From assembly GCF_988243305.1 (NCBI RefSeq), contig NZ_OZ547136.1: a stretch of DNA of 64,000 bases. One strand, written 5' to 3'. The notes under the pieces are model-generated. The model ran no database searches, was not told the DNA's origin, and saw only the letters and a program-made list of their open reading frames with translations. Below, in pieces: positions 14,930 to 17,156 of the stretch. How positions within the stretch are numbered: position 1 is the first letter of the stretch; each line of letters starts with the position of its first letter. The position numbers and the translations under genes are program-made.

Positions 14930-16231
14930 TTAACGTTTTCCGCTGTGCAACCAGAACGGTTCCTGATTGTTTGCCTCATTACGGAAATGTTCAATTTCGA
15001 TGCGTTGCCCGGTCGCAATAGCGTGACGCAGCCCCTGCCAGTTCTCCAGCCAGGCTTGCGCGACGACAGGATCGTAGTAACCCGCCAGCAACAGGATTGA
15101 GTCAATATCACGCGTCAGGCGTGGCAACTGGTCACGGTAGCGATCGCCCAACGGCTGGCAGAAAACGCTTTTCAGTTCAGCGGCATGGCGGGAAAGATGG
15201 ATATCGGCAAAGCGTTTGAAGGAATCGCTCATTTTACTCTGCGCTTTGGCATCTAAAAACGGCTGCCAGGCTTTGCTTACCAGCCATTCGGTCAATGCCA
15301 GCTTCGCCATTGCCGTTTCGGTAGAGTAGACCGCCGTTACGGCAGACACCGCAGAAGCGATGGTCGCTTCGCATTGGGTCAGCAGGTCACGTAAGTGAGT
15401 GCTCGCTTTACGCGGCACAATGCCACCGAACAGCATCAGCGTATGGCGAACAAGGCCAATGGCTGCCAGCACCTGCTCTTTCGCCGCATCATTGCCGCGT
15501 ACCCATAGTTCTTCATGATACTGCCATTGCGCTAACGCCAGCTCGAGCGCCGCTTCCAGCCCCTGCTCGACATCCGCTTTTGCCGCAACATGTAAAATGG
15601 TGGTCGGTTTGATTTCACGCGCCGGATTGCCCTGCGCCAGATGATAGCCACGCGCCGCTTTGCTCAGGCTGCCCTGGCGTAATCCGGTTTGCGATACCAG
15701 TTGGTTCGCCAGTTTCAGCACCGCGCGCGTGTCGCCGCTAAGCAGTTCCAGTTCCAGCTCGCAGATAGGTTCAGCAAATTCACCCGCTTTCACTTCCCCC
15801 TGGTCGAGGGCGATTTCAATTTGGCTACCATCAACCTCTACCAGCCACTTTTCGCGATAAAAATCGGTGCTGAACAGCGGTTGTACGCGGGAAGCAAGAT
15901 CGGCAGGCAATTCGCCGTTCGGCCAGACTTCCGTCGGTAACTGCGCCAGGTCGAGCGTCGGTTCGCTCAACGCCACGTTATATTCCGGGCGCTGGTGTAA
16001 GCCGCCTGTCACTCTTCCTGCGACTTTCATGGTCATCTCATAGCGACCGTTTTCGCCACGAATACGTAAGCCCATGTCGTGCCCACGCAGCCAGTTATCC
16101 GGCGTTTCGTAGTAAATATTCAGCAACTGCACGGGGTCATGGTGCTCGCCGCCCAGCGTATTGAGATGGTCACGCAACGCCTCAACGGCACTGTGATTAA
16201 CAATAAACTTTAATTCGATTTCCTGAGCCAT
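14930..16231 (-). CDS. ygiF: Inorganic triphosphatase, CYTH domain (433 aa)
   Basis: [11 protein letters not shown]... CYTH-type N-terminus; conserved position upstream of glnE. Confidence 0.85.
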
Positions 16232-16472
16232 GGCCTTTACTTATCGGTTATGTCACATAAGTGACGATGAACGGCGAACTTAATGCGATCTTTTTTGTCA
16301 GTAGATAGTATTTTGCGCCAAATTGCCATGCAACGGGCAATTTGACGGGCGTAAAAGTTTGAAGCAGTGGCAAGACCTGACACAGAGGATTCCGATTGAT
16401 GTCGAATGCTTTGCGTAGCGACACTGATGCCACTACTATCGTTCCACTTTCCATGACAATAACGACAGCCTG

Positions 16473-17093
16473 ATGCCAAAATTACGCCTGATCGGATTAA
16501 CTTTACTCGCACTTAGCGCCACTGCCGTCTCACACGCTGAAGAAACGCGCTATGTTTCTGATGAACTGAATACCTGGGTCCGTAGCGGTCCGGGAGATCA
16601 TTATCGCCTCGTGGGCACGGTTAACGCCGGCGAGGAAGTGACCTTATTACAAACTGACGCCAACACCAATTATGCCCAGGTGAAAGACAGCTCTGGCCGT
16701 ACCGCCTGGATCCCGTTGAAACAACTTAGCACTGAGCCAAGCCTGCGCTCCCGTGTGCCAGATCTGGAAAATCAGGTCAAAACCCTGACCGATAAACTCA
16801 CCAATATCGATAACACCTGGAATCAGCGCACCGCAGAAATGCAGCAAAAAGTGGCGCAGAGCGACAGCGTGATCAACGGGTTAAAAGAAGAAAATCAGAA
16901 ACTGAAAAACGAGCTGATTGTCGCGCAGAAAAAGGTCGATGCCGCCAGCGTACAGCTGGATGACAAACAGCGCACCATCATCATGCAATGGTTTATGTAT
17001 GGCGGCGGCGTGCTGGGGCTTGGCTTGCTGCTCGGTCTGGTACTGCCGCACCTGATCCCAAGCCGCAAACGTAAAGATCGCTGGATGAACTAA
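16473..17093 (+). CDS. ygiM: SH3-domain membrane-anchored protein (206 aa)
   Basis: Signal/anchor N-terminus, SH3-like region, coiled coil and C-terminal TM segment. Confidence 0.85.
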   Translation: MPKLRLIGLTLLALSATAVSHAEETRYVSDELNTWVRSGPGDHYRLVGTVNAGEEVTLLQTDANTNYAQVKDSSGRTAWIPLKQLSTEPSLRSRVPDLENQVKTLTDKLTNIDNTWNQRTAEMQQKVAQSDSVINGLKEENQKLKNELIVAQKKVDAASVQLDDKQRTIIMQWFMYGGGVLGLGLLLGLVLPHLIPSRKRKDRWMN

Positions 17094-17156
17094 ATCGCCT
17101 TCTTCGTTGCACTGTCTTATTATTAGGAATTGTGTATTTGACGAAGGGATGATGGC

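Follow-up and report, generated by a model that had tools for sequence, protein, structure and literature searches.

A conserved inverted repeat between the divergent genes ygiF and ygiM of Escherichia coli, a possible stem-loop of the sigma-E-dependent ygiM-cca leader

A perfect inverted repeat lies in the gap between the divergently transcribed genes ygiF and ygiM and raises the question of what, if anything, it does. The initial annotation of this DNA named it a candidate operator for a regulator and added that it could equally be chance. Here we ask how well the repeat is conserved, which regulatory elements surround it and whether its conservation is better understood in terms of DNA or of RNA.

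The inverted repeat and its conservation

The window, by which we mean the whole stretch of 64,000 nucleotides analysed, comes from the E. coli chromosome. A query of 501 bp (16100-16600) that covers the gap has 100% identity with many E. coli genomes, and every base of the ygiF-ygiM gap is the same as in K-12 MG1655. The gene ygiF (14930-16231, minus strand) runs leftward, as does glnE, and ygiM (16473-17093, plus strand) runs rightward, as does cca; the repeat does lie between the two, in a divergent gap of 241 bp. Its left arm, CAAATTGCC (16319-16327), and its right arm, GGCAATTTG (16336-16344), would form the 5' and the 3' strand, respectively, of an inner stem on the plus strand. GGCAATTTG is the exact reverse complement of CAAATTGCC, and the two 9-nt arms are perfectly complementary, as had been annotated. 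Two details of that description needed correction: the spacer, given as 9 nt, is 8 nt long (ATGCAACG), and the repeat ends at 16344 instead of 16345. If one mismatch is allowed, the arms grow to 12 nt (16316-16327 / 16336-16347).

First-order Markov shuffles of the 64-kb window contain about 5-7 perfect 9-bp inverted repeats with spacers of 0-20 nt (about 7 when nested hits are counted), which by arithmetic corresponds to ~0.02 such repeats in one 241-bp gap. Because chance alone gives this number per 64 kb, the repeat is not significant by itself at the scale of the window, and its non-random character follows from its conservation, not from the palindrome as such.

Conservation was analysed by aligning ygiF-ygiM gaps from 80 orthologous loci in different species of Enterobacteriaceae; the divergent gene pair was kept in all 80 of the loci fetched. 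Segment identities were calculated against the E. coli sequence, with one sequence per lineage label, for about 29 Enterobacteriaceae lineages. The left arm (16319-16327) has an identity of 0.89-0.91, the 8-nt centre 0.82, the right arm (16336-16344) 0.74-0.77 and the adjoining segment 16345-16356 0.72. By comparison, identity is 0.55 in the ygiF leader, 0.57-0.59 in the spacer of the sigma-E promoter described below and 0.49 in segment 16357-16384; across the same lineages, neighbouring non-functional DNA is thus about 50-59% identical, against 89% and 74% in the arms. The footprint, of roughly 50 bp around the repeat, is kept in Escherichia, Salmonella, Citrobacter, Enterobacter, Leclercia, Lelliottia, Kluyvera and others. 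Of 5425 E. coli genomes, 5417 carry the 54-nt block 16303-16356 unchanged, and 4845 do so for an adjacent control block of equal size (~11% variant).

The first G of the right arm (16336) differs between genera and has an identity of only 0.21, and the ninth pair, 16327:16336, is kept in 8 of 57 sequences and is specific to Escherichia. Consequently, the conserved repeat comprises 8 bp (CAAATTGC/GCAATTTG) with a 10-nt spacer. Judged by these alignments, the repeat is not a chance occurrence and is under purifying selection. Conservation across Enterobacteriaceae had been proposed as the check on the repeat; the orthologous gaps keep it, and its footprint across genera, together with its near-invariance in E. 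coli, leads us to reject the suggestion that it could equally be chance. A search for YgiM protein homologues in more distant Enterobacterales returned close relatives only.

The alignment also revealed insertions of roughly 70-130 bp that are GC-rich, self-complementary and REP/ERIC-like. They occur in Intestinirhabdus alba (positions 1720-1836 of its locus, L053) and Siccibacter turicensis (about 1700-1825, L076), where they fall between the sigma-E -10 element and the hairpin block, and in Buttiauxella noackiae (L078), where the insertion lies in the ygiF leader. Intestinirhabdus retains the hairpin sequence downstream of the insertion. The ygiF leader of E. coli contains a second palindrome, GTCAC-ATAA-GTGAC (16252-16265), of which the left half, TATGTCACA, is shared by many genera and the right half is not conserved.

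A sigma-E promoter and predicted small RNA sites in the gap

The best match to the sigma-E consensus in the gap is cGAACTT-N16-TCAGT on the plus strand (16275-16302), upstream of ygiM-cca, with cGAACTT (16275-16281) as the -35 element, a 16-nt spacer and TCAGT (16298-16302) as the -10 element. Promoters of this class are characterized by a GGAACTT -35 element, a TCAAA-like -10 element and a spacing of 15-19 nt, with 16 nt preferred (PMC1312014), and both the motif and the spacing at 16275-16302 agree with this description. GCGAACT and GTCAGTAGATAG are near-invariant in all genera (0.95-0.99 conserved) and the spacer between them reaches only 0.57-0.59; as far as the alignment can tell, invariant hexamers around a variable spacer are a classic promoter footprint. 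In sigma-E promoters a discriminator of 5/6 nt follows the -10 element and A or G serves as +1 (PMC1312014), and from these motif rules we infer a ygiM start site at about 16308. The repeat lies 10-35 nt downstream of the promoter and, given the predicted start, would consequently cover the sigma-E transcript from about +12 to about +37. Published work counts ygiM among the sigma-E regulon's members, with a sigma-E promoter in both E. coli and Salmonella, and reports for Salmonella a sigma-E ChIP-seq peak between ygiF and ygiM (PMC3326320, PMC4577112). The supplements of the Cappable-seq, Shigella M90T, Salmonella ppGpp, Conway 2014 and Kim 2012 studies were searched for start sites by gene name, and those of Kim 2012 and Cappable-seq also by genome coordinate, and yielded nothing usable.

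Several other readings of the same DNA were considered and discarded. A second sigma-E promoter with GGCAATT as its -35 element lacks the AAC/TC core and has 4 mismatches, and 16275-16302 was preferred. A plus-strand sigma-70 promoter, TTGTCA-18-CAAATT, with the left arm as its -10 element, would have a weak -10 without T1. The mini-ORF ATG CAA CGG GCA ATT TGA (16328-16345) has no Shine-Dalgarno sequence, and its ATG is ACG in the Enterobacter/Leclercia/Lelliottia group. Within the sigma-E spacer, CTTAAT-N5-CTTTTT (16280-16296) resembles a PmrA/BasR box with a perfect first half; this is probably a chance likeness, the spacer not being conserved between genera.

Downstream of the repeat, the plus strand carries predicted sites for two small RNAs whose sequences were confirmed by Rfam. 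At 16362-16371, AAGCAGUGGC (AAGCAGTGGC) is a perfect 10-nt complement of RybB nucleotides 1-10, its 5' seed. Among the 11 orthologous loci listed for this comparison, E. coli, E. albertii and one other Escherichia have the complement and the other lineages lack it; it may be a lineage-specific target site, confined among these loci to Escherichia. The conserved leader block CAGAGGATTCCGATTGATGTCGAATGCTTTGCGTA (16383-16417; identity 0.82-0.83) is predicted to form a duplex with MicA nucleotides 4-29 at -20.8 kcal/mol. In the 10 further loci listed, the energies of the MicA duplexes are about -19 to -26 kcal/mol, and the duplex occupies the position equivalent to that of E. coli in the Escherichia loci only. 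The gene, also called htrG, is a published target repressed by RybB and MicA (PMC5736990, PMC6694218; for MicA also PMC4618604). The RybB complement agrees with the published repression by RybB, and block 16383-16417 is probably the MicA site behind the published repression of htrG, to judge from the predicted duplex.

Both predicted sites lie downstream of the sigma-E start and of the hairpin described below, and upstream of TTGCGT-17-TACTAT (16411-16439, plus strand), a candidate proximal promoter of the sigma-70 type for ygiM whose hexamers are conserved. Their location upstream of this candidate proximal promoter suggests that the long sigma-E leader is made and is the species regulated by the small RNAs. 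An Hfq-binding antisense RNA has also been described opposite the ygiM-cca junction (PMC2887942), on the minus strand of the ygiM-cca gap (17094-17156).

Folding and covariation of the ygiM leader

The plus-strand RNA 16308-16360 folds into an extended interrupted hairpin of 17 bp (16311-16356) with a free energy of -20 kcal/mol and a z-score of -3.0; one of 200 shuffled sequences was equally stable. The hairpin consists of an outer stem UUUUGCGCC/GGCGUAAAA (16311-16319 / 16348-16356), an inner stem AAAUUGCC/GGCAAUUU (16320-16327 / 16336-16343), a loop of 8 nt and a 3' bulge of 4 nt (GACG). With the start at the predicted 16308, it would begin at about +4, that is, after about 3 unpaired 5' nucleotides. 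When the whole 183-nt leader is folded, the 9-bp inner stem, which is the reported repeat, forms as such.

In Escherichia, Salmonella, Citrobacter, Enterobacter, Leclercia and Lelliottia, minimum-free-energy folding gives this same hairpin. Trabulsiella and Kluyvera retain the inner stem, and their outer stem is different or absent. In Klebsiella/Raoultella, Pseudocitrobacter, Superficieibacter, Silvania, Cedecea, Pluralibacter (whose right arm is deleted) and the ESNIH1 lineage the hairpin has decayed or been replaced, and the mean folding z-score over 59 unique sequences is only -1.4. Four Cedecea-lineage loci (L049, L051, L056 and L059, around position 1850) carry a different hairpin, TACCC-N4-GGGTA, at an equivalent distance from the sigma-E -10 element; as RNA (UACCC-N4-GGGUA) it is part of the minimum-free-energy fold in two of the four, L049 and L059 only. 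This replacement hints that structure, not sequence, has been retained in that lineage.

Covariation was tested on a non-redundant alignment of 59 sequences. Taken as a whole, the 17-pair structure has 80.5% of its cells paired, against at most 49.5% when the partners are slid; 9 of the 17 pairs show double-sided changes, and the observed covariation was reached by none of 500 shuffles. The same holds for the outer helix alone (0/500 shuffles). For the inner helix alone, that is, the reported repeat, pairing is not above what the composition of the columns gives (62/500 and 115/500 shuffles), and RNAalifold found no consensus structure on the full 59-sequence alignment. In this alignment, covariation backs the outer stem only, and the inner stem is kept by the sequence conservation of both arms. 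Compensatory changes include A:U to G:C in Phytobacter, G:C to A:U in Buttiauxella brennerae and C.A to A:U in Kluyvera.

Cells with G.U outnumber those with A.C by 92 to 50, the majority G.U pair 16315:16352 works on the plus strand only, and many right-arm changes are compatible with G.U pairing on that strand. The G.U excess mildly favours a plus-strand RNA as the conserved molecule. The structure by itself would not require so high a conservation of the loop (ATGCAAYG) and of the left arm, which points to an additional constraint at the level of sequence.

A search of Rfam 15 found no family match in the gap; the only hit, GlsR4, scored 14 bits against 70 (E = 3.2), lay elsewhere in the gap and is a chance match. 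An intrinsic terminator or attenuator was also considered and rejected. Intrinsic terminators share with this structure a GC-containing stem-loop, here situated in a 5' leader, but the ygiM hairpin has no U-tract after the stem on either strand (GUAAAAGUUUGAAG on the plus strand, AAAAUACUAUC on the minus strand), and a terminator scan of 16100-16600 found none.

Possible roles of the conserved block

The observations above comprise the repeat and how well it is conserved, the motif of a sigma-E promoter and the capacity of the sequence to fold. The repeat could be the inner stem of a 5'-terminal stem-loop in the sigma-E ygiM-cca leader, probably one that affects transcript stability. This is the reading that we tentatively prefer, giving it close to an even chance. 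In this model, sigma-E RNA polymerase would start at about 16308, and from about +4 the transcript would fold in vivo into the 17-bp interrupted hairpin 16311-16356; farther along the leader, which totals about 165 nt, would come the predicted RybB and MicA sites and then the ribosome-binding site of ygiM. By analogy with ompA-type hairpins, a stem-loop so near the 5' end could limit 5'-end-dependent decay (RppH/RNase E). The hairpin would then set the basal stability of the stress-induced transcript, and the sigma-E-dependent small RNAs would act on top of it.

The closest parallel is the hairpin of the ompA 5' UTR, reportedly a 5'-terminal stabilising stem-loop of E. coli mRNA and described by Emory, Bouvet and Belasco in 1992. 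The ygiM hairpin would resemble it as a stable hairpin that is predicted to begin within about 3 unpaired nucleotides of the 5' end, in the long leader of an envelope-related gene that is likewise a target of MicA. The ygiM hairpin differs in having no sequence similarity to that of ompA, and in the high conservation of its loop and left arm, which exceeds the needs of a generic protective hairpin. As far as our literature search went, the hairpin has not been described before, and it would belong to a known type of element. A second parallel is the feedback in which sigma-E activates a target together with MicA and RybB, which in turn repress the target, as passages in PMC4618604, PMC5736990 and PMC6694218 relate, citing Gogol 2011. 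With its published sigma-E promoter, its status as a MicA/RybB target and the motif and predicted sites in the gap, ygiM/htrG resembles the members of this circuit, but the hairpin itself lies outside the described promoter and outside the predicted small RNA seed sites.

The conservation could instead be mainly that of DNA, the block being the core sigma-70 promoter of ygiF(-glnE) and the repeat its by-product, with which a hairpin may coexist. Within the gap, the minus strand offers a single sigma-70-like candidate, TTGCAT-17-TACTAT (16305-16333), with TTGCAT (16333-16328) as the -35 element and TACTAT (16310-16305) as the -10 element; the left arm would fall within the 17-nt spacer, the loop would be the -35 element and the right arm would lie just upstream of it. 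Such a promoter would account for the loop being as conserved as the arms. ATAGTA, the reverse complement of TACTAT, is 0.93-1.0 conserved, ATGCAA/ACGCAA (TTGCAT/TTGCGT on the minus strand) is kept in most genera, even in Pluralibacter with its deleted right arm, and a near-identical pair of hexamers, TTGCGT-17-TACTAT, recurs in the candidate proximal ygiM promoter (16411-16439). However, the candidate ygiF hexamers match at only 3/6 and 4/6 positions, and the -35 element is missing in Cedecea, Buttiauxella and the ESNIH1 lineage. Moreover, promoter spacers are normally free to vary, whereas the 17-nt spacer of the ygiF candidate is 0.87-0.91 identical, against 0.57-0.59 for the neighbouring sigma-E spacer, and a core promoter leaves unexplained the right arm, the conservation of GACGGGCGTAAAAG and the covariation of the outer helix. 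Since this spacer is over-conserved and the right arm and 16345-16356 lie outside the core promoter, a second constraint is needed. As the main explanation of the conservation of the block, we regard a ygiF promoter as possible but unlikely. The operator originally proposed, that is, the site of a dimeric transcription factor controlling ygiF and/or ygiM, appears improbable. The palindrome is perfect, short and conserved, lies in a divergent promoter region and overlaps the candidate ygiF -35 element, as palindromic operators in such regions may do; its centre, at about 16331.5, is about -33 from the candidate ygiF start and about +24 from the sigma-E start, which are typical positions for a repressor. 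A table of NsrR ChIP-chip targets in PMC12249550, citing Partridge 2009, lists htrG/ygiM, and at least one regulator may accordingly bind near the gap. Against a dimeric site, the half-sites are unequally conserved (0.89 on the left versus 0.74 on the right), the centre (0.82) is not less constrained, only 8 of the 57 sequences retain the innermost pair and a one-strand preference for G.U is meaningless for a DNA site; the element would moreover fall at about +12 to +37 of the sigma-E RNA, inside a longer hairpin. Among sites for particular regulators, the best NsrR half-site in 16200-16500 has 3 mismatches at 10 specified positions, the full 23-bp NsrR site has no match there at up to 9 mismatches, and a CpxR box around GTAAAAGTTTGAAG has 3 mismatches. 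We know of no E. coli regulator motif that fits 9-bp half-sites spaced 17 bp from centre to centre. The repeat thus differs from known palindromic operators in its asymmetric conservation, its conserved centre, its one-strand wobble bias and its want of a cognate regulator or motif. What stands of the annotation is the regulatory element; the operator for a regulator found no positive support, given the asymmetric arms, the conserved centre and the lack of an NsrR or CpxR match.

We give very little credence to a palindrome formed by chance, with no function of its own, in DNA conserved for other reasons or slow to diverge. The number of 9-bp repeats with short spacers expected per 64 kb (about 5-7), the agreement of inner-helix pairing with column composition and the several genera without pairing would suit such an origin, but neighbouring segments of the gap fall to about 0.5 identity against 0.74-0.91 in the arms, the block is near-invariant in the 5425 E. 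coli genomes against ~11% variants in the adjacent control, and compensatory and wobble changes occur in several lineages. A more elaborate proposal, which we consider a rather distant prospect, is that block 16303-16356 is a dual-purpose switch, serving on one strand as a core promoter or operator of ygiF and on the other as a structured 5' leader element of the sigma-E ygiM-cca mRNA. The protein recognizing it would be a regulator that binds the DNA or else a factor that binds the RNA and reads the conserved CCAUGCAAYG loop. Such a switch would tie the expression of the triphosphatase YgiF to that of the envelope-stress operon.

The present analysis maps onto the gap a sigma-E promoter, a hairpin, predicted sites for RybB and MicA and, for each of the two genes, a candidate sigma-70 promoter. 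It alters no general principle and describes a modest, ordinary regulatory feature. If confirmed, the 5'-terminal stem-loop that we favour would explain why a strong footprint without annotation is found here, and it would add a third layer, the intrinsic stability of the leader, to the sigma-E/MicA/RybB feed-forward circuit.
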